50,632 nt of DNA from Escherichia coli (lineage in GTDB: Bacteria > Pseudomonadota > Gammaproteobacteria > Enterobacterales > Enterobacteriaceae), in the NCBI RefSeq assembly GCF_003334315.1, contig NZ_QOWR01000031.1; one strand, written 5' to 3'. Positions 19,415 through 27,134 of the stretch are shown here, piece by piece. Under the pieces are notes generated by a model, which searched no databases, was not told where the DNA came from, and saw only the letters and a list, made by a program, of their open reading frames with translations. Made by a program: the position numbers and the translations under genes. Each line of letters starts with the position of its first letter. The stretch's first letter is position 1.

Positions 19415-19770
19415 TTTTTGCGCCTCGTTATCATCCAAAATACGCCATGAATATCTCCAACGAGATAACACGGTTAAATCCTTCACCGGGGGATCTGCTC
19501 AATATTAACTCTACCGATATCTTCGGCTTATGCCGAGCACCCCTGGCGATGTAAAGTCTACAACGTAGTTGAAAACTTACAAGTGTGAACTCCGTCAGGC
19601 ATATGAAAAAAAAGTCTTGTATAAGGTATGTTTAATCTTTTTTGTCAGCGACAATTTACAGAAGAGAATCGCGGAAACCGCTTCAGACAAGCCTCCGCAA
19701 GGAAAATTAGTCACGACTGAAAGCATTGGCTGGGCGACAAAAAAAGTTCCAGGATTAATCCTAAATTTAC

Positions 19771-20280
19771 TTAATGATACAAATTAGAGTGAATTTTTAG
19801 CTCGGAAAGTTGTCTCGTGGCGTGAGAGGATGCGCTTACCGGACGCATAATAAACCCCATAGCGTTACCTTCATTTGCCGCATCAACAAGTTCAGCATGC
19901 TCTTCTTCAGTCAAATCATCTGCCAACCAACCGATCACCACACTGTAATTGCCCGTGCGTAAAGCGCGAACCATTGACTCCACAGTGTGGCAAGGGGAGA
20001 GCTGGCTAATCTGCATTACTTTCGTTAAGGGTAGCCCAGATGCCTGAACCCATTCCCGACTCAGTTTTTGTTGCGGTGTTAACCAGAGTTGCCAGCGCGA
20101 TTGCTGACCGAGTTGCTGTAACAATGGCAACAGTAGAAGTTGCGTCATCATGGGCTGATCTTCGCGATAGACAACTTCACTGATAAGCCCGGCTGTAGTG
20201 TTTTCCGTAGAGACACGCGCAATTTTACTTGCTGCGGATGAGAACGACGAAGAACGATGTGCATAGCCTGAAGTGTACAT
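19771..20280 (-). CDS. sulA: SOS cell-division inhibitor SulA
   Basis: Translation [54 protein letters not shown]...; LexA box immediately upstream. Confidence 0.95.
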
Positions 20281-20303
20281 AATCAATCCAGCCCCTGTGA
20301 GTT

Positions 20304-20323
20304 ACTGTATGGATGTACAGTAC
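20304..20323 (-). promoter_or_regulatory. LexA operator (SOS box) of sulA
   Basis: TACTGTATGGATGTACAGTA: perfect CTGT-N8-ACAG palindrome 24 nt upstream of the sulA start. Confidence 0.85.
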
Positions 20324-20498
20324 ATCCAGTGACAACAAAGATCAACCCTATTTTCGGAAAGAGCCTCGCAAATTTTGTCGTTGGTGACGGGAAAACATAA
20401 ATTAATCTTGCCCCTTAAGAATAAGTTGCCTATTTTCGTAGTTAACGGATCCGTTAATGTGAATCATTCTTTTATGTTATGATTTTAAAAGGAATTTT

Positions 20499-21128
20499 AT
20501 GAAAAGCCTCTCCTATAAGCGGATCTATAAATCACAAGAATACCTGGCAACGTTGGGCACAATTGAATACCGATCATTGTTTGGCAGTTACAGCCTGACC
20601 GTTGACGACACGGTGTTTGCGATGGTTTCTGATGGTGAGTTGTATCTTCGGGCTTGTGAGCAAAGTGCACAGTACTGTGTAAAACATCCGCCTGTCTGGC
20701 TGACATATAAAAAGTGTGGCCGATCCGTTACCCTCAATTACTATCGGGTTGATGAAAGTCTATGGCGAAATCAACTGAAGCTGGTGCGTCTGTCGAAATA
20801 TTCTCTCGATGCAGCGCTGAAAGAGAAAAGCACGCGCAATACCCGGGAAAGACTGAAAGATTTGCCCAATATGTCTTTTCATCTGGAAGCGATTCTCGGG
20901 GAGGTGGGGATTAAGGATGTACGGGCGTTACGTATACTTGGGGCAAAAATGTGTTGGTTGCGACTGCGGCAGCAAAACAGTCTGGTGACAGAAAAGATTC
21001 TGTTTATGCTTGAAGGTGCCATTATCGGCATTCATGAAGCTGCGCTCCCGGTGGCACGCCGCCAGGAGCTTGCAGAATGGGCTGACTCTCTTACGCCGAA
21101 ACAGGAGTTTCCTGCGGAACTTGAGTAA
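20499..21128 (+). CDS. sxy: Competence regulator Sxy (TfoX)
   Basis: 209-aa ORF divergent from sulA; sequence matches Sxy/TfoX as recalled. Confidence 0.88.
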   Translation: MKSLSYKRIYKSQEYLATLGTIEYRSLFGSYSLTVDDTVFAMVSDGELYLRACEQSAQYCVKHPPVWLTYKKCGRSVTLNYYRVDESLWRNQLKLVRLSKYSLDAALKEKSTRNTRERLKDLPNMSFHLEAILGEVGIKDVRALRILGAKMCWLRLRQQNSLVTEKILFMLEGAIIGIHEAALPVARRQELAEWADSLTPKQEFPAELE

Positions 21129-23244
21129 TCTGGCGTTGCAGACGACCAATCTCAGGCAGTAATGCAATCAATAATCCAACTTGTTGTACGACCAGAGGTT
21201 CTTTGCTGTCTGCCCGTGGTTCAAGTTGCTGCATCCGCTGTTTCAGGCTAGCTAATGCCTCATTGACGCGTTCTTCATCAGCAGGTTGATGATGTAACGC
21301 GTCATCAACATAGCAAACTGCGTCATCAAGAAACGCCAGAATTTCAGGATTAGTTAACTGCTCCCGGTGAGCACCGAGGGCTGAGATATAGCTGGTAAAC
21401 GTATGGTTAAGGCACAGCAACCGAAACGCGGCTTCGCGAATTTGCGGGGTAACGTTCGGCTCGCTGGACATATTTGATACCACCGACGCCAGCTCAGCAT
21501 CACGGTTGTGTGCATCGCGGCGGGCAATACGATACGCCAGACGGTTATCACGCCCCTGATGGTATTGCTCCAGTATGGCATCGAGATACCGACAGTTGGC
21601 CTCTGTGGCGCGTTCGAGCATGCGCGGCAGATTGCGAAACTGCCAGTCAGGCCAGATGTAGCTCACTGCCGCCCACGCAATGGCACAACCAATCAGCGTA
21701 TCGATTACGCGAGGTAACGCTACTTCAAAACCTTCACCCAGTAAGTTAAAACACAGTAGCACCAAAAGTGTGATGAACATCGTTGCATGAGCGTATTGCA
21801 CGTTACGGAAGGCAAAAAAGAGCACGCCGGTAATAACCAGCAGCACCAGCTGCCCTTCCAGTGATGGCACAAACCACAGCACAGGAATGCCAATGGCGAT
21901 ACCTACCAGCGTACCAATAATCCTTAACTTCAGGCGGTGGCGCGTGGCGTTATAGTTTGGCTGGCAGACAAACAAACTTGTCAGCAAGATCCAATACCCG
22001 TGATGCATTCCGGTTATCTGAATGATGGCGTAGCCGAAGCACAACACCAGCGACATTCTTACCGCATGACGGAAGAGGGCGGATTCCGGCGTGAAGTGAC
22101 GGCTAAGACGCAGCCAGATATCACTCAACCCGTGCGGGCTGTCATCAGCGAGCTCATTTTCGTCATTATTATGGGGTAGTGCCTGGGCCTGTTCTGATTC
22201 AATTGTTGCCAGTTGGGCATCAATGGCGCGTAAATTGTTCAGCAAAAATCCCAGTGTTTTGAGTAAATCGGCGGGTGCGCCGTTATCGCGCATCCGCTCC
22301 AGCGCAGCATCAATATGCGTAAAAGCGCGCTCAAAATGCGGATCATGTTGATAAGGCTGACGCAACAAAATACAGCGTGACAGTTGCTGGCACGCCTGGC
22401 CCTGCATCGACATCAGCCGCTGAAAACGGAACAGCACGTCGCTGTGGCGAAAATGTTCACGCAATGTTTGATACTGAATATGAGAAGAGCTGGCACGCTC
22501 GTGAATATCCTGTGCGACAAAGTAATAATGCAGCGTGCGACGCGTTCCCCGTTGACCACGATCGCCACGTAAGCGGGTCAGCAGCGAGAGTTTCGTCTGA
22601 TTCAATGTCGCCATCAGCAGACCGTTGGCGAGAGCCAAATCGTACAGCGGTGCCTGGCTTTGATCTTCAATATCAGGATCAAACATGCGCGACTTGAGCT
22701 CAAGATAACGCGCCAGTTGTTCATAGCAACGCGCCAGGTTGTCCTGCAGCGGGCGGACCGGGAACAGCAGATGACCAATAAGTGTCAGGACGTTGTACCA
22801 GACGGCACCGGCCAGCAGATACATCGGCTGCTGATACCAGTGCTCATACAGTGATGTTCCCAACATAGTGTAAATGGCGATCAGCAATGCACCGAAGGCA
22901 ATTGTTGCATAGCGTTGACCCAGACCGCCGAGCAAAATGAAGCCGCTGGTAGAGAGCGTTAAGCCAATCGCAAATAGCCAGGGCCAGGGAAACAGCAATT
23001 CTACTGAGGCCGAGGCGATAAAAAAGCAGAACAGCGTAATGATGAGGTTACGCAAACGTCCCGCCAGTCGGTCATCGAGATCGGTCAGCGCCGCTGCCAC
23101 CATCCCCAGCGTTAGCGGAATCGTCAGTTTTACATCACCCAGCCACCACGGAAACGCTGTGGTTCCACAAAGCGCAATAAAAATACGCGCGTAATACAGC
23201 CAGGCGCTGTTCCAGGTATAGCGTTTGAGCAAAGGACTTAGCAT
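21091..23244 (-). CDS. yccS: Inner membrane protein YccS (putative transporter/efflux family)
   Basis: About 717 aa with two blocks of TM helices separated by a soluble region. Start may be 23253 (ATG three codons upstream); 3' end overlaps the sxy 3' end. Confidence 0.85.
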   Translation of the reverse strand: MLSPLLKRYTWNSAWLYYARIFIALCGTTAFPWWLGDVKLTIPLTLGMVAAALTDLDDRLAGRLRNLIITLFCFFIASASVELLFPWPWLFAIGLTLSTSGFILLGGLGQRYATIAFGALLIAIYTMLGTSLYEHWYQQPMYLLAGAVWYNVLTLIGHLLFPVRPLQDNLARCYEQLARYLELKSRMFDPDIEDQSQAPLYDLALANGLLMATLNQTKLSLLTRLRGDRGQRGTRRTLHYYFVAQDIHERASSSHIQYQTLREHFRHSDVLFRFQRLMSMQGQACQQLSRCILLRQPYQHDPHFERAFTHIDAALERMRDNGAPADLLKTLGFLLNNLRAIDAQLATIESEQAQALPHNNDENELADDSPHGLSDIWLRLSRHFTPESALFRHAVRMSLVLCFGYAIIQITGMHHGYWILLTSLFVCQPNYNATRHRLKLRIIGTLVGIAIGIPVLWFVPSLEGQLVLLVITGVLFFAFRNVQYAHATMFITLLVLLCFNLLGEGFEVALPRVIDTLIGCAIAWAAVSYIWPDWQFRNLPRMLERATEANCRYLDAILEQYHQGRDNRLAYRIARRDAHNRDAELASVVSNMSSEPNVTPQIREAAFRLLCLNHTFTSYISALGAHREQLTNPEILAFLDDAVCYVDDALHHQPADEERVNEALASLKQRMQQLEPRADSKEPLVVQQVGLLIALLPEIGRLQRQITQVPQETPVSA

Positions 23245-23262
23245 AAAGGCCATATTAGTGGA

Positions 23263-23709
23263 TTATTCAAAACGACGACGTGCATTGGCTTCACGCGCAG
23301 CTTGCGCTGTTTCTACCGATACCACGCGACGACCAACCGGCCATAGTGCAATAGCGGCAATTTTAAAGTTCGCAATGCCGACAGGAATGCCAATGATTGA
23401 AATACATTGTGCGATGCCCGTTGCAATGTGCATCAGGCATAACCACCAGCCAAAGAAAATCAGCCAGAAAATATTCAATACCGTACCGCCAGTATTCAGC
23501 AGCACATTTTTGCCAGCCGGGTTCAGTTCATCGACATGAATAGCTTCATTGCCATAAGGCACCAGAGACAGTTTAGTGATCTCCCAGCAGGATCGTGTCA
23601 GCGGTAAGGTAAAAATCAGCACAATACTGACCAGAGTCGCCAACAGCCAGCCCAGAGTGGTGGCAAATCCGCCAAGCACAAAGTTCAGAATGTTCAAAAC
23701 GGTACGCAT
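23263..23709 (-). CDS. yccF: Inner membrane protein YccF
   Basis: 148-aa hydrophobic ORF immediately upstream of yccS on the same strand. Confidence 0.85.
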   Translation of the reverse strand: MRTVLNILNFVLGGFATTLGWLLATLVSIVLIFTLPLTRSCWEITKLSLVPYGNEAIHVDELNPAGKNVLLNTGGTVLNIFWLIFFGWWLCLMHIATGIAQCISIIGIPVGIANFKIAAIALWPVGRRVVSVETAQAAREANARRRFE

Positions 23710-23831
23710 AAAACCTCGCTTTACTGTGGTTTTCAGTAATGGGCGGCAATTGTAACGTTTTTTTGGGCTGGAGCACGTTTTCTCTGACGGTTACACTGAT
23801 AAGAAATAATTTCGTGTGGATCTACAGAGTC

Positions 23832-25886
23832 ATGGAACTGAAAGCGACAACGCTTGGAAAACGTCTGGCACAGCACCCTTACGATCGGGCGGTGATCCTC
23901 AATGCCGGGATTAAAGTCTCCGGCGATCGCCACGAATACCTTATTCCTTTCAATCAATTACTGGCGATTCACTGTAAGCGCGGTCTGGTATGGGGCGAGC
24001 TGGAATTTGTACTGCCGGACGAAAAAGTGGTGCGTCTGCACGGCACCGAATGGGGCGAGACGCAGCGTTTTTACCATCATCTTGATGCTCACTGGCGGCG
24101 GTGGAGTGACGAGATGAGCGAAATTGCGTCTGGTGTTTTACGCCAGCAACTGGATTTGATTGCCACGCGCACTGGGGAAAATAAATGGCTGACGCGTGAG
24201 CAAACCTCTGGCGTGCAGCAACAAATCCGCCAGGCTTTGTCGGCGTTGCCGTTGCCGGTTAACCGACTGGAAGAATTCGATAACTGCCGTGAGGCGTGGC
24301 GTAAATGTCAGGCCTGGTTGAAAGATATTGAAAGCGCTCGGTTGCAGCATAACCAGGCGTATACCGAAGCCATGCTTACCGAGTATGCGGATTTTTTCCG
24401 CCAGGTCGAGTCTTCACCGCTGAATCCGGCGCAGGCCCGGGCAGTCGTTAATGGCGAGCATTCTCTGTTAGTGCTGGCAGGTGCAGGAAGCGGAAAAACG
24501 TCGGTGCTGGTGGCCCGTGCAGGCTGGTTGCTGGCGCGTGGTGAAGCGTCCCCTGAGCAAATTTTATTGCTGGCGTTTGGTCGCAAAGCCGCTGAAGAGA
24601 TGGACGAGCGGATTCGCGAACGGCTACATACCGAAGACATTACCGCACGCACGTTTCATGCGCTGGCGCTGCATATTATTCAGCAGGGCAGCAAAAAAGT
24701 TCCGATAGTCAGCAAACTGGAAAATGATACCGCTGCCCGTCATGAACTCTTTATTGCTGAGTGGCGCAAGCAATGCAGCGAAAAGAAAGCGCAGGCGAAG
24801 GGCTGGCGGCAATGGCTGACGGAAGAAATGCAGTGGTCAGTGCCAGAAGGTAACTTCTGGGATGATGAAAAATTACAGCGTCGCCTTGCCTCTCGCCTCG
24901 ATCGCTGGGTAAGTCTGATGCGGATGCACGGTGGTGCACAGGCAGAAATGATTGCCAGTGCACCCGAAGAGATTCGCGATCTGTTCAGTAAACGTATCAA
25001 GTTGATGGCCCCGTTATTAAAAGCCTGGAAAGGTGCGCTGAAGGCAGAAAACGCTGTCGATTTTTCGGGCCTTATTCATCAGGCGATTGTGATTCTGGAG
25101 AAAGGTCGCTTTATCAGCCCGTGGAAGCATATTCTGGTTGATGAATTTCAGGATATCTCGCCGCAGCGGGCAGCGTTGTTAGCGGCATTACGCAAGCAAA
25201 ACAGTCAGACGACGTTGTTCGCTGTTGGTGATGACTGGCAGGCGATTTACCGATTCAGCGGTGCGCAAATGTCGCTCACCACCGCTTTCCATGAAAACTT
25301 TGGTGAAGGCGAACGCTGTGATTTAGACACGACTTACCGTTTTAACAGTCGTATCGGTGAGGTGGCAAACCGGTTTATTCAGCAGAACCCAGGCCAGCTG
25401 AAAAAGCCGCTAAACAGCTTAACCAATGGAGACAAAAAAGCCGTCACGTTATTGGATGAGAGTCAACTTGACGCTTTGCTGGATAAGCTCTCTGGTTATG
25501 CCAAACCGGAAGAGCGCATTCTGATCCTGGCGCGTTACCATCACATGAGGCCTGCCAGCCTGGAAAAAGCGGCAACACGCTGGCCGAAGTTGCAAATCGA
25601 CTTTATGACCATTCATGCCAGCAAAGGGCAACAGGCGGATTACGTCATCATCGTTGGCTTGCAGGAGGGAAGTGATGGTTTTCCGGCTGCGGCGCGGGAG
25701 TCGATTATGGAAGAGGCGCTACTGCCACCGGTTGAGGATTTCCCGGACGCTGAAGAACGGCGGTTAATGTACGTGGCGCTGACCCGGGCACGCCATCGGG
25801 TATGGGCACTGTTTAACAAAGAGAATCCCTCTCCCTTTGTGGAAATACTGAAAAATCTGGATGTGCCGGTGGCGAGAAAACCGTAA
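23832..25886 (+). CDS. helD: DNA helicase IV
   Basis: Track ORF trimmed to the ATG at 23832 (MELKATTLGKRLAQHPYDRAVILNAGIKVSG...); UvrD-like Walker A GAGSGKTS; 684 aa. Confidence 0.93.
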   Translation: MELKATTLGKRLAQHPYDRAVILNAGIKVSGDRHEYLIPFNQLLAIHCKRGLVWGELEFVLPDEKVVRLHGTEWGETQRFYHHLDAHWRRWSDEMSEIASGVLRQQLDLIATRTGENKWLTREQTSGVQQQIRQALSALPLPVNRLEEFDNCREAWRKCQAWLKDIESARLQHNQAYTEAMLTEYADFFRQVESSPLNPAQARAVVNGEHSLLVLAGAGSGKTSVLVARAGWLLARGEASPEQILLLAFGRKAAEEMDERIRERLHTEDITARTFHALALHIIQQGSKKVPIVSKLENDTAARHELFIAEWRKQCSEKKAQAKGWRQWLTEEMQWSVPEGNFWDDEKLQRRLASRLDRWVSLMRMHGGAQAEMIASAPEEIRDLFSKRIKLMAPLLKAWKGALKAENAVDFSGLIHQAIVILEKGRFISPWKHILVDEFQDISPQRAALLAALRKQNSQTTLFAVGDDWQAIYRFSGAQMSLTTAFHENFGEGERCDLDTTYRFNSRIGEVANRFIQQNPGQLKKPLNSLTNGDKKAVTLLDESQLDALLDKLSGYAKPEERILILARYHHMRPASLEKAATRWPKLQIDFMTIHASKGQQADYVIIVGLQEGSDGFPAAARESIMEEALLPPVEDFPDAEERRLMYVALTRARHRVWALFNKENPSPFVEILKNLDVPVARKP

Positions 25887-25888
25887 GA

Positions 25889-25912
25889 AACAGGTGGCGT
25901 TTGCCACCTGTG
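25889..25912. terminator. Hairpin / putative terminator between convergent helD and mgsA
   Basis: Perfect inverted repeat ACAGGTGGC-GTTT-GCCACCTGT; flanking U-runs are weak. Confidence 0.5.
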
Positions 25913-25917
25913 CAATA

Positions 25918-26376
25918 TTACTTCAGACGGTCCGCGAGATAACGCTGATAATCGGGGATCAGAATATCGACCGCGTCGTTGAAATGCGGCGACTGGATTA
26001 TGAAGTCTGCCGTTGCCACGTTGGTGGCGACCGGAATGTTCCATACCGTCGCCAGACGCAGCAAGGCTTTCACGTCAGGATCGTGCGGCACGGCATTTAG
26101 TGGATCCCAGAAGAAAATCAATACATCAATTTTCCCTTCTGAGATCAATGCGCCAACCTGCTGGTCACCCCCCATTGGGCCACTCAACATCGCGTTGACG
26201 TTCATGCCGGTCGCGCGGGAAATTAAGTTACCGGTAGTGCCTGTTGCATACAGTACGTGTTGTTCCAGTAACGGTTGATGCCGTTCCACCCAGCTCATCA
26301 GCATTTGTTTGCAGTGATCGTGTGCCACCAGCGCAATATGTTTCCGCGCAGGTAAAGTGCGAGTCGTCAGTTCCAT
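25918..26376 (-). CDS. mgsA: Methylglyoxal synthase
   Basis: Translation [37 protein letters not shown]...; 152 aa. Confidence 0.95.
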
Positions 26377-26471
26377 AATGTACATCCGTAGTTAACTTTC
26401 CTACAGATTACTGTAAGCACTTATCGCTGCAAGATAAAGACCGAAAAAGCCTGCGCACAGGCACAAAAATC

Positions 26472-27134
26472 TCAGGAAGATGGTTGTTTTTCCGCCCACT
26501 GCAGGAAAGTATTTCGCGTTTGTGGGTCAGCCAGTTTAAACCAATACTTCAGCCGTTGTTCTGTGAGCACCTGAGACTGCGGTGGAATAGCATCCAGCTC
26601 GGAAACACCCGAAAGCAGCGTACTGTCATCTGCCATCATCGTGGCAAATTGCGGTAGTGAAGCGCGTTTCGCGGATTTGTTATAGCGTTCAACCTCGACC
26701 TCATAATCAATCGTTTTTGCCGTTGAGGTAATGGCGAGAATATCCAGCTTTACCGGAATCGGCGTCGCATCGCCATCCAACAATTCAAGGCGCGGCGCGG
26801 CATCAAAATGGTTAGCTTCCCGCTCATTCTCCAGGCGAGGCAGGCGAAAATTGACCTGGTTGATGAGCTGGGTATTAAAACTGACCACCAGCGGTGGGGA
26901 GATATACAGCCGTTCTTCACTATTGGAAAGATGAATCGTCTTCTCAACGCGAAACACTAACTGATGCGGTCCATTATCCAGTTCAATGCTGTCCGCACCG
27001 CGCAGCAGAGAGCTGGAAACCTTCTTGCCGTCGAGTACCAGAAGATCGACATCGGTTGAAAGCCGCAGCGTGGTGGCAAAAACGGATACCGGCAAACATA
27101 ATGCAATCAAGGTGGTCACGATGCCGGTTTTCAT
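26472..27134 (-). CDS. yccT: UPF0319 periplasmic protein YccT
   Basis: 220 aa with N-terminal signal peptide ([20 protein letters not shown]). Confidence 0.85.

Follow-up and report, generated by a model that had tools for sequence, protein, structure and literature searches.

Known relatives and the plant channels

Characterised bacterial relatives of the E. coli membrane protein YccS, such as AaeB, MdtO and FusC, are described as components of pumps and not as channels. Genes of this type are found in an operon with a membrane-fusion protein, and in MdtNOP also with an outer-membrane factor. In plants, malate and other small organic anions pass through ALMT-type channels, which work as homodimers. 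ALMT12 is a symmetric dimer whose single electropositive pore lies at the dimer interface, and the ALMT motifs PXWXG and WEP have been defined where the membrane and cytoplasmic layers meet (PMC8890709).

YccS and YhfK are among the large membrane proteins of E. coli that are still orphans. Full-text literature searches found no functional study of YccS or of YccF, the small membrane protein encoded next to it, and no proposed function was found in the literature searched for the widespread and strongly conserved YccF family. The database names, "YccS family putative transporter" and "YccF domain-containing protein", fit the original prediction that neither protein has an established function.

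The yccFS locus

The window is a stretch of 50,632 nucleotides of E. coli K-12 DNA. The genes concerned, with the region presumed to drive yccFS, are as follows.

20499-21128, plus strand: sxy, a co-activator of the CRP-S regulon (ORF listing and RefSeq annotation of the MG1655 segment)
21091-23253, minus strand: yccS, 720 aa in RefSeq and 717 aa from the conserved start (ORF listing and RefSeq)
23263-23709, minus strand: yccF, 148 aa (ORF listing and RefSeq)
23710-23831, no strand assigned: divergent intergenic region between yccF and helD, 122 bp, presumably containing the yccFS promoter
23832-25886, plus strand: helD (ORF listing and RefSeq annotation)

The segment is 100% identical to MG1655 and was found in all complete E. 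coli genomes searched (5426/5426). The presence of the segment in every one of these, together with the curated HMM scores and Pfam domains given below, indicates that yccF and yccS are real genes and not chance ORFs. The ORFs and RefSeq confirm a tandem minus-strand yccF and yccS, divergent from helD and convergent with sxy, and YccF and YccS were correctly described from the start as polytopic membrane proteins, co-oriented and separated by a very short spacer. The annotated genes within 3 kb of yccS in E. coli are sulA, sxy, yccF, helD, mgsA and csgI.

A simple sigma-70 scan of 23710-23831 found no consensus-like promoter. A fragment from upstream of yccF, cloned to lacZ, gave low activity (175-210 units vs 30-45 for the empty vector) that depended little on FNR (PMC1802558).

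The two genes are separated by the following spacer.

23245-23262, minus strand: yccF-yccS spacer, 18 nt when counted to the ATG at 23244, the conserved start (717-aa YccS)

A further in-frame ATG, specific to Escherichia and located at 23253, is the RefSeq start of the 720-aa form and cuts this spacer to 9 nt. Across genera it is the start of the 717-aa form that is conserved, in most of them with 15-19 nt between it and yccF; in the other genera this start aligns to residue 4 of the 720-aa form. Thus the gap of 19 bp first given for this locus has to be amended to 9 nt (RefSeq start) or 18 nt (conserved start). A spacer of 9-24 nt is kept in all loci where the start could be placed but one (L043, 52 nt), and a simple consensus scan of the 9-18 nt spacer found no terminator-like or promoter-like site.

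Operon mapping by RNA-seq, proposed as a check in the original prediction, had already been published for precisely this region: single-nucleotide RNA-seq shows a single yccFS operon converging on sxy (Conway 2014, PMC4161252, Fig. 2 legend). Two expression studies also handle yccFS as one operon, with yccF and yccS co-regulated in an rpoS comparison (-36/-27 fold) (PMC2907692, PMC8085971). By this published mapping, the locus corresponds to the yccF-yccS operon of E. coli K-12, encoding two inner-membrane proteins from one transcript.

YccS and its similarity to ALMT channels

YccS matches TIGR01666 with 1262.4 bits (cut-off 470.75) over residues 11-709 and profile positions 1-705 of 705, and the YccS/YhfK model TIGR01667 with 1165 bits (cut-off 467.8). 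Pfam places a FUSC-like domain (PF12805) at residues 69-348 (E 2.5e-113), FUSC_2 at residues 408-528 (E 8.6e-29) and FUSC at residues 413-685 (E 6.8e-10). By these HMM and domain matches, YccS is a member of the YccS-YhfK subfamily of the FUSC/ArAE superfamily.

The AlphaFold2 model of YccS, from a shallow 19-sequence alignment, is of moderate confidence (pLDDT 72.5, pTM 0.63). In it, a unit of six TM helices plus a helical domain occurs twice, and the corresponding features are as follows.

22765-23208, minus strand: N-terminal transmembrane domain, residues 16-163, six predicted helices (AlphaFold2 model)
22186-22752, minus strand: first cytoplasmic helical domain, residues 168-356
21655-22080, minus strand: C-terminal transmembrane domain, residues 392-533, the part of YccS whose sequence resembles the ALMT pore domain
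21643-21654, minus strand: W534-P535-D536-W537, at the position of the ALMT PXWXG linker
21124-21642, minus strand: second cytoplasmic helical domain, residues 538-710 (AlphaFold2 model)
21457-21462, minus strand: invariant E598-P599, in the loop between helices 2 and 3 of the second cytoplasmic domain

The modelled N-terminal TM helices span residues 16-38, 41-57, 63-86, 91-111, 113-133 and 141-163 (hydropathy peaks were also computed), and the C-terminal ones residues 392-414, 420-429, 438-461, 465-482, 487-504 and 509-533. Helices of the second cytoplasmic domain are modelled at residues 538-566, 568-595, 603-628, 636-654, 657-676 and 685-710, and the tail, residues 713-720, is predicted to be disordered (AlphaFold2 pLDDT <50). 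By profile, the N- and C-terminal halves are collinear but not significantly similar (hhalign E 0.21), so the picture of YccS as a pseudo-dimer rests on the predicted fold.

A homology and structure search of YccS, also suggested at the outset, led to the FUSC/ArAE family and to structural matches with the ALMTs. When the model is compared with the PDB by Foldseek, the six best matches are all AtALMT1 or AtALMT9 (probability 1.00), with target-normalised TM-scores of 0.46-0.64 over ~370 aligned columns and borderline E-values (1e-3 to 1.6e-2); the next match drops to a probability of 0.30. In sequence, the YccS/YhfK profile matches GmALMT12 (E 1.8e-5), with ALMT residues 60-251 aligned to profile positions 393-565 (add about two for residue numbers of the 720-aa form). 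The Pfam ALMT model (PF11744) does not match YccS significantly (E 0.13, 11.6 bits, residues 417-590 only). The two-layer fold of the ALMT protomer, with six TM helices arranged as hairpins plus a seven-helix cytoplasmic domain, is found in the predicted YccS.

The residues W534, P535, W537, E598 and P599 are invariant in 19 YccS/YhfK sequences. HMMER aligns the WPDW segment to "FPNWSG" of ALMT12, with F or R at the position of the ALMT G, and E598-P599, in the H2-H3 loop, corresponds in position to the ALMT WEP but is preceded by S instead of W. The PXWXG and WEP motifs are both absent from the N-terminal half of YccS.

The most likely role of YccS is that of an organic-anion channel or exporter. 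The ALMT link yields a concrete guess: that YccS is an anion channel formed by a single chain, with a small carboxylate as its substrate. YccS would be a covalently fused pseudo-dimer with a single pore between its two halves. It would act as a channel or facilitator through which a cytoplasmic organic anion (carboxylate) exits, and would need no periplasmic adaptor of the kind found with AaeB-type pumps. The PhoU-like cytoplasmic helical domains may form a layer that senses the ligand and gates the pore, with the WPDW and EP motifs conserved in the C-terminal half linking it to the membrane layer. Since PhoU itself is soluble and regulates phosphate transport, this resemblance informs the fold and not the function. 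The description of the characterised bacterial relatives as pump components counts against the channel reading. The reading preferred here joins a yccFS operon, YccS as a pseudo-dimer anion channel, YccF as a possible lineage-specific partner and an incidental overlap with sxy; its probability is put at about 0.6.

YccF and its pairing with YccS

YccF matches NF008739 with 298.3 bits (cut-off 213) across 148/148 residues and carries two Pfam YccF repeats (PF03733), at residues 4-53 and 77-127. In its AlphaFold2 model (pLDDT 94.9, pTM 0.86), each repeat forms two helices, of 29 and 18 residues, and a short strand. YccF is thus predicted with confidence to be a two-repeat four-helix membrane bundle; no informative structural relative was found. 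The YccF/DUF307 family is very widespread, with 2259 cluster representatives at 50% identity.

Within Enterobacterales the pairing of the two genes is constant. yccS lies directly downstream of yccF in 17/17 complete genome loci and 16/16 close metagenome loci, and the adjacency is also seen in Pasteurellaceae-like contigs, there as mgsA-yccF-yccS. Among distant YccFs (35-47% identity), a YccS-like ORF was found nearby at none of 64 loci, 26 of which have at least 1.5 kb of downstream sequence. Six further YccF lineages have unrelated neighbours by called genes, with the adjacent gene unidentified on two contigs. None of eight longer YccF fusion proteins examined carries a FUSC domain, and some have zinc-ribbon tails. 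Conversely, no yccF stands beside the YccS-like gene of L034 or beside yhfK, the E. coli paralog. The pairing is therefore lineage-specific: the original "pair" holds in Enterobacterales and Pasteurellaceae-like genomes, where the two genes are linked, and does not extend across the YccF family.

An obligate two-subunit transporter or channel, in which YccF would be a small gating or assembly subunit of the YccS pore, is unlikely in view of this distribution, although several observations favour it. Adjacency and orientation are kept in every Enterobacterales locus examined and in the Pasteurellaceae-like contigs, the spacers, mostly 9-24 nt, are suited to translational coupling, and both genes are co-regulated as yccFS. 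Purifying selection is also stronger on YccF than on its neighbours; between Brenneria and E. coli, protein identity is 85% for YccF, 70% for YccS, 68% for HelD and 46% for Sxy. Such an arrangement would parallel the small membrane proteins encoded beside other ArAE-family pumps, as in the aaeXAB operon, which likewise begins with a small membrane protein. Against it stand the 64 distant loci, the unrelated neighbours in the further lineages, the longer YccF proteins lacking FUSC, and the two YccS-like genes that do without yccF. As the YccF family as a whole is free-standing, a partner role for YccF is at best lineage-specific. Under the preferred reading, YccF, translated directly upstream of YccS in Enterobacterales and Pasteurellaceae-like genomes, may be an accessory or modulatory partner.

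Convergent overlap with sxy

At its other end, yccS meets sxy.

21091-21128, no strand assigned: yccS/sxy coding overlap, 38 bp, the last 12 codons and the stop of each gene

The overlap, first estimated at about 38 bp, is exactly 38 bp by the ORFs and the sequence. It makes complementary 3' RNA ends unavoidable, and such ends have already been observed: sxy-yccS is among 165 convergent overlaps listed by ExcludonFinder in 2025, with overlapping transcription in at least 50% of 58 MG1655 transcriptomes (PMC12288877). The original prediction went on to propose possible transcriptional interference between sxy and the membrane operon. The overlapping transcription is thus on record, while the regulatory step is weak, because overlaps are common genome-wide, the coding overlap is not conserved, and the overlapped codons encode non-conserved tails of both Sxy and YccS, that of YccS being predicted to be disordered. 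Overlapping 3' ends occur at 276 of 370 convergent operons in E. coli (Conway 2014, PMC4161252). Convergent overlap is therefore the majority state, and the sxy-yccS pair is not marked out by it.

The sxy neighbourhood is conserved in 30/30 Enterobacterales loci with sequence reaching past the yccS 3' end. At 20 of these junctions the genes overlap by 4-88 bp, and at 10 they are separated by 5-50 bp. The conserved overlap length expected of a selected device was not found in these 30 loci; what is conserved is the close convergent juxtaposition. The convergent gene that follows yccS in Pasteurellaceae-like contigs is not sxy but one for an Ldh-family dehydrogenase (mdh-like).

A functional excludon, in which polymerase collision or RNase III cleavage of the duplex lowers the mRNA of the partner and so links competence control to expression of the membrane operon, is improbable. 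The coding overlap does force complementary 3' ends, a sequence scan found no terminator-like hairpin in or beside 21091-21128, the pair is a listed excludon, and the junction stays tight in all 30 loci, with an 88-bp overlap or a 50-bp gap at most. However, most convergent operon pairs of E. coli have overlapping transcription, the overlap varies in length and a third of the loci have no coding overlap, the Pasteurellaceae-like yccS faces a different gene, and no reciprocal-expression data were found in the literature searched. The loci and literature examined gave no sign of a dedicated regulatory role. The 38-bp overlap looks like a by-product of tight convergent packing, with stop codons drifting through non-conserved tails.

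Other readings of YccS function

A metabolic role suggested by gene order is quite improbable. The yccFS operon would be what is left of an ancestral mgsA-yccF-yccS unit, and YccS would export something made in the methylglyoxal bypass, for instance D-lactate or a related small carboxylate, or would protect against methylglyoxal stress in another way. Pasteurellaceae-like contigs carry csgI(yccT)-mgsA-yccF-yccS on one strand with spacers of 8-22 nt, Enterobacterales keep this gene order with only helD, on the opposite strand, between mgsA and yccF, and the anions conducted by ALMT-type channels are of a fitting kind, malate being one. However, a gene order common to two sister orders may be plain inheritance, and in L034 the YccS-like gene directly follows csgI, without mgsA or yccF. 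In E. coli, yccT-mgsA and yccFS have been mapped as separate operons (Conway 2014, PMC4161252), and the literature searched yielded no phenotype or metabolite data for such a role.

It is very improbable that YccS is the inner-membrane part of a tripartite or adaptor-dependent efflux pump (AaeAB/MdtNOP type) with partners encoded elsewhere: its FUSC/FUSC_2 domains are common to that group and there is a weak NCBIfam match to MdtO (E 2e-5, 23 bits, cut-off 821), but the 3 kb to each side of the locus in E. coli contain no gene for a membrane-fusion protein or an outer-membrane factor, none is among the six named flanking genes of 33 related loci (whose flanks were searched only for the neighbours seen in E. 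coli), and the whole-unit structural match of YccS is to channels working without partners.

A more elaborate version of the channel reading is highly speculative and of very low probability. In it, YccS would be the single-chain bacterial counterpart of the ALMTs, a gated carboxylate relief valve ancestrally tied to mgsA, with YccF as a small four-helix gating subunit of a new kind; if true, modulating membrane channels would be the general role of the widespread, highly conserved YccF/DUF307 family.

The yccFS operon and the sxy overlap are already in the literature, and the original prediction as stated adds nothing new to it. What is new is the link between YccS and ALMT, the two-repeat bundle of YccF, the lineage-specific pairing and the variable overlap with sxy. 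If the guess for YccS or YccF is true, a gap in the E. coli transport inventory would be filled, and a bacterial model for the plant ALMT channels would become available.

Comparison with known systems

The closest relative of YccS in E. coli is the paralog YhfK (TIGR01667), also uncharacterised, which is of the same length class, has an identical Pfam architecture and 25% identity end to end, and shares the invariant WP.W and EP motifs. Unlike yccS, yhfK lies downstream of crp on the same strand, without a yccF-like neighbour. The AaeB/MdtO/FusC-type FUSC exporters (ArAE, TC 2.A.85) share with YccS the FUSC and FUSC_2 domains as well as a duplicated layout of 6+6 TM helices. YccS is distinguished from them by its N-terminal FUSC-like domain (PF12805) and by the lack of a membrane-fusion or outer-membrane factor gene nearby. 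The soluble domain of a COG4129/ArAE_1 membrane protein (PDB 3kmi) and PhoU each match one YccS domain, at 4-9% identity.

For YccF, the comparison is with its own family, YccF/DUF307 (PF03733), of which the E. coli protein is the founding member; its repeats bear the family motif IIGIPxG...FK.A...LxPxG. Among the convergent excludons of E. coli, sxy-yccS is on the published list, and here the coding regions themselves overlap. Unlike an excludon with reciprocal regulation, it is known by overlap alone, and the length of the overlap is evolutionarily variable.

The six-TM plus cytoplasmic-domain protomer of the ALMTs (GmALMT12/QUAC1 7w6k, AtALMT1 7vq3, AtALMT9 8hiw) corresponds to the repeated unit of YccS. 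YccS lacks the G of PXWXG and the W of WEP. The ALMTs are homodimers with subunits of ~400-600 residues, whereas the single YccS chain holds two diverged copies of the unit.

The yccF-yccS locus and the start of yccS

The 4-kb stretch around yccF-yccS is 100% identical to MG1655, the window being E. coli K-12 sequence, and it occurs in every complete E. coli genome compared (5426 of 5426). ORF calling and RefSeq give the same genes:

20499-21128, plus strand: sxy
21091-23253, minus strand: yccS
23263-23709, minus strand: yccF
23832-25886, plus strand: helD
21091-21128: coding overlap of yccS and sxy, exactly 38 bp

The overlap matches the approximate 38 bp of the original prediction, which had also given about 717 aa for YccS and a 19-bp gap between yccF and yccS. 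The RefSeq start of yccS is the ATG at 23253 (720 aa), and an alternative ATG at 23244 yields the predicted 717 aa. The gap was misstated, being 9 nt with the RefSeq start or, a single nucleotide short of the predicted value, 18 nt with the 717-aa start. Across genera it is the 717-aa start that is conserved, and in most of these the aligned ATG lies 15-19 nt past the yccF stop. The extra upstream ATG is limited to Escherichia and one metagenome contig ~90% identical to Escherichia. The yccS entries of E. fergusonii are called variously at 717, 721 or 737 aa.

Both ORFs are genuine genes. YccS scores 1262 bits with TIGR01666 and carries the Pfam domains FUSC-like, FUSC_2 and FUSC; YccF scores 298 bits with NF008739 and consists of two YccF repeats. 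A mechanical helD ORF extends 31 codons further 5' than the annotated gene (715 vs 684 aa, over 23739-23831) and takes up the greater part of the sequence between yccF and helD; every homolog aligns from residue 1 with the protein that begins at the annotated position, 23832.

Previous reports and expression of yccFS

Both genes and their operon mapping are already known, and the observation behind the original prediction is correct. Operon mapping, which it had proposed as a check, is in print: yccFS was mapped by RNA-seq, and Conway et al. 2014 (PMC4161252) used the sxy/yccFS region for their example figure. In expression studies yccFS is handled as a single unit. It had also been held that neither protein has an established function, and a search of the full-text literature agreed, recovering no functional characterization of YccF or YccS but only incidental mentions in screens.

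Changes of -36/-27 fold are reported for yccFS in an O157 rpoS comparison (PMC2907692), the operon being reported as strongly de-repressed in the rpoS background, and Crp repression of yccFS has been predicted (PMC8085971). An FNR ChIP peak lies close to yccF/helD, with a promoter fusion little affected (PMC1802558); the reported site maps to 23939-23962, within helD. yccF has been named as an SOS candidate, yet without induction. No more than hints come from a large-scale screen in which YidC depletion mislocalized YccF, a silver screen in which the yccF deletion scored, and a butanol-evolved line that acquired a yccF promoter mutation.

Overlap of sxy and yccS

A terminator scan gave six weak hits, where chance alone would give 4.2, and neither the sxy/yccS junction nor the yccF-yccS spacer contains a terminator-like hairpin. 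With no such hairpin at the junction, each transcript must enter the partner gene, and published RNA-seq shows the sxy and yccFS transcripts running into one another's gene. The sxy-yccS pair is among 165 convergent overlaps that recur in 50% or more of 58 MG1655 transcriptomes (ExcludonFinder, PMC12288877), and complementary 3' ends were reported for 276 of 370 convergent operons, with a mean overlap of 286 nt (Conway et al. 2014, PMC4161252).

The overlap had been taken to imply transcriptional interference. Overlapping transcription stands, but the regulatory reading is weakly supported: some antisense effect may occur, yet the drift in overlap length provides no grounds for setting this pair apart. 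Across 30 Enterobacterales loci, an overlap of 38 bp is seen only within Escherichia, in most of its loci, with 41 bp in E. albertii; the remaining overlaps measure 4-88 bp, and in 10 of the 30 loci a gap of 5-50 bp separates the two genes. The overlapped codons encode the poorly aligned C-terminal tails of YccS and Sxy, the former predicted to be disordered in the structural model. The variable overlap thus looks like stop-codon drift at a tightly packed convergent junction.

Regulatory and RNA elements

A permissive Rfam scan of 19500-24500 found no known RNA element, a snoRNA-like match (E 0.56) being rejected as chance, and a promoter scan of 20300-24100 found no sigma-70 consensus-like promoter. 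PADLOC returned no defense-system match for YccS or YccF. In a scan of the window there is no LexA box near yccF, the only good box of the region being that of sulA. This 20-nt site, TACTGTATGGATGTACAGTA (20303-20322), is the classical sulA operator, situated on the upstream side of sulA in the interval that separates it from sxy; it is perfect, the sole zero-mismatch match in the 50-kb window.

The window shows no enrichment of CRP-S-type motifs, and the sxy-yccS-yccF intergenic regions contain none. A CRP ChIP peak without a motif was seen within yccS in an ETEC study (PMC4287617). yccS is convergent with sxy, and the gene of its E. coli paralog, yhfK, comes right after crp in the same orientation (locus L033, 4001-6774). 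Sxy and CRP work jointly at CRP-S promoters, and each YccS-family paralog of E. coli thus adjoins the gene of one of them on its 3' side. As Sxy and CRP are non-homologous, this placement may be coincidental.

Conservation and distribution of the yccF-yccS pair

Among the proteins of the neighborhood YccF is the best conserved, with 78-93% identity across genera (loci L002-L019), compared to 70-90% for YccS, 66-87% for HelD and 43-69% for Sxy. Such conservation is unusual in a small protein without a known role. A genome scan returned 18 close loci, and the order helD / yccF-yccS / sxy / sulA is retained in all 17 complete genome loci (Escherichia, Citrobacter, Klebsiella, Kosakonia, Phytobacter, Yokenella, Brenneria and others). 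In a metagenome scan with an 8-sequence YccF alignment, YccS directly follows YccF in all 16 close loci. The pair is also retained in a distant lineage, where YccF is ~60% and YccS ~35-40% identical. The nearest named relative of a 99-aa YccS fragment from this Pasteurellaceae-like group is Pasteurella multocida (76% identity); the search with this fragment gave fragments only, placing the lineage without deepening the alignment.

In the Pasteurellaceae-like loci, csgI(yccT)-mgsA-yccF-yccS lie on one strand with spacers of 8-22 nt (L035 4934-7044, L036, L037 and L020), and what converges on yccS from downstream is not sxy but an mdh-like gene for an Ldh-family dehydrogenase. Enterobacterales share this order, except that helD, in the reverse orientation, separates mgsA from yccF (23263-27134 in the window). 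The comparison suggests an ancestral mgsA-yccF-yccS unit that helD later interrupted. Such an old connection with mgsA is a low-probability lead, although one worth pursuing.

In 64 more distant YccF loci (35-47% identity), 26 of which have at least 1.5 kb downstream, hmmsearch with an E-value limit of 0.01 recovered no YccS-like ORF. Neighbor clustering, which is noisy due to alternative-frame ORFs in high-GC contigs, found no family recurring in more than five of these loci; the small clusters that did form seem to reflect clade-specific synteny, two of them being a DapB-like reductase and an HtpX-like protease (identified by eye) and the rest having no name. Six further YccF lineages with called genes have unrelated neighbors, the adjacent gene being unnamed in two contigs. 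Certain distant members of the YccF family reach 280-834 aa (P0226, P0255, P0260, P0232 and P0188), far beyond the usual length, through C-terminal extensions that carry repeated CxxC zinc-ribbon-like motifs, large soluble domains or more membrane segments. A FUSC domain is absent from all eight longer YccF proteins examined, the C-terminal tails being various, with zinc ribbons in three; thus, they give no gene-fusion support for the pair.

YccS relatives also occur alone. yhfK follows crp with no yccF there, and in locus L034 (6271-9158) a YccS-like gene (37% identity) directly follows a csgI-like gene, with neither mgsA nor yccF between them, and precedes an rnf operon. L034 is a 382-kb NCBI contig (GCA_015473165.1) with many genes split into fragments, possibly from a degrading genome. 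The unpaired distant YccFs, yhfK and L034 speak against a family-wide YccF-YccS two-component system. As the pair is present in two groups but missing from distant YccF loci, yccF-yccS appears to be an old, lineage-restricted operon.

Predicted structure of YccS and its likeness to ALMT channels

A homology or structure search of YccS had been proposed, and the fold matches point to one family, the plant ALMT anion channels. There is no solved structure of a close YccS relative among PDB sequences, and single-sequence searches of these gave nothing significant for YccS (ALMT12, E 0.14) or YccF. The matches listed in a YccS/YhfK profile search were all at least 69% identical, so the structure was predicted from an alignment of 19 sequences, orthologs plus the paralog YhfK (pLDDT 72.5, pTM 0.63). 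In the model, one unit of membrane helices then cytoplasmic helices occurs twice in tandem:

16-163, first copy: six membrane helices
168-356, first copy: long cytoplasmic helix bundle
392-533, second copy: six membrane helices
538-710, second copy: cytoplasmic helices

Within the membrane helices or beside them lie the conserved arginines R23, R399, R438, R440, R444 and R515.

The six top Foldseek matches in the PDB are all AtALMT1 or AtALMT9 (probability 1.00, target-normalized TM-score 0.46-0.64, ~370 columns); matches below these have a probability of 0.30 or less. Only the profile search, not the single-sequence search, reached GmALMT12, through the C-terminal membrane domain (E 1.8e-5), and the Pfam ALMT model on YccS is below significance (E 0.13). 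On the predicted model, YccS thus has an ALMT-like fold. The two halves are collinear in hhalign, although at E 0.21 the match falls short of significance, which the shallow alignment probably explains. An AaeAB-type pump is argued against by the annotated neighbors of yccS in E. coli, among which there is no membrane-fusion or outer-membrane gene.

ALMT12 is a symmetric dimer with one electropositive pore, in which coupling involves a PXWXG motif between layers and WEP in the loop of cytoplasmic helices 2-3 (PMC8890709). At the aligned positions YccS has W534-P535-D-W537 and S-E598-P599, respectively. W534, P535, W537, E598 and P599 are invariant in the YccS alignment, YhfK included, and in the model the EP pair sits in the loop that joins helix 568-595 to helix 603-628. 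The N-terminal half of YccS lacks the PXWXG- and WEP-like motifs. In our reading of the model, YccS would be a fused, asymmetric pseudo-dimer of ALMT-like units with one pore for an organic anion; the channel function and the class of substrate are inferred. Our best functional guess is that YccS is an ALMT-like organic-anion channel or exporter in a single chain, with YccF as its small lineage-specific companion.
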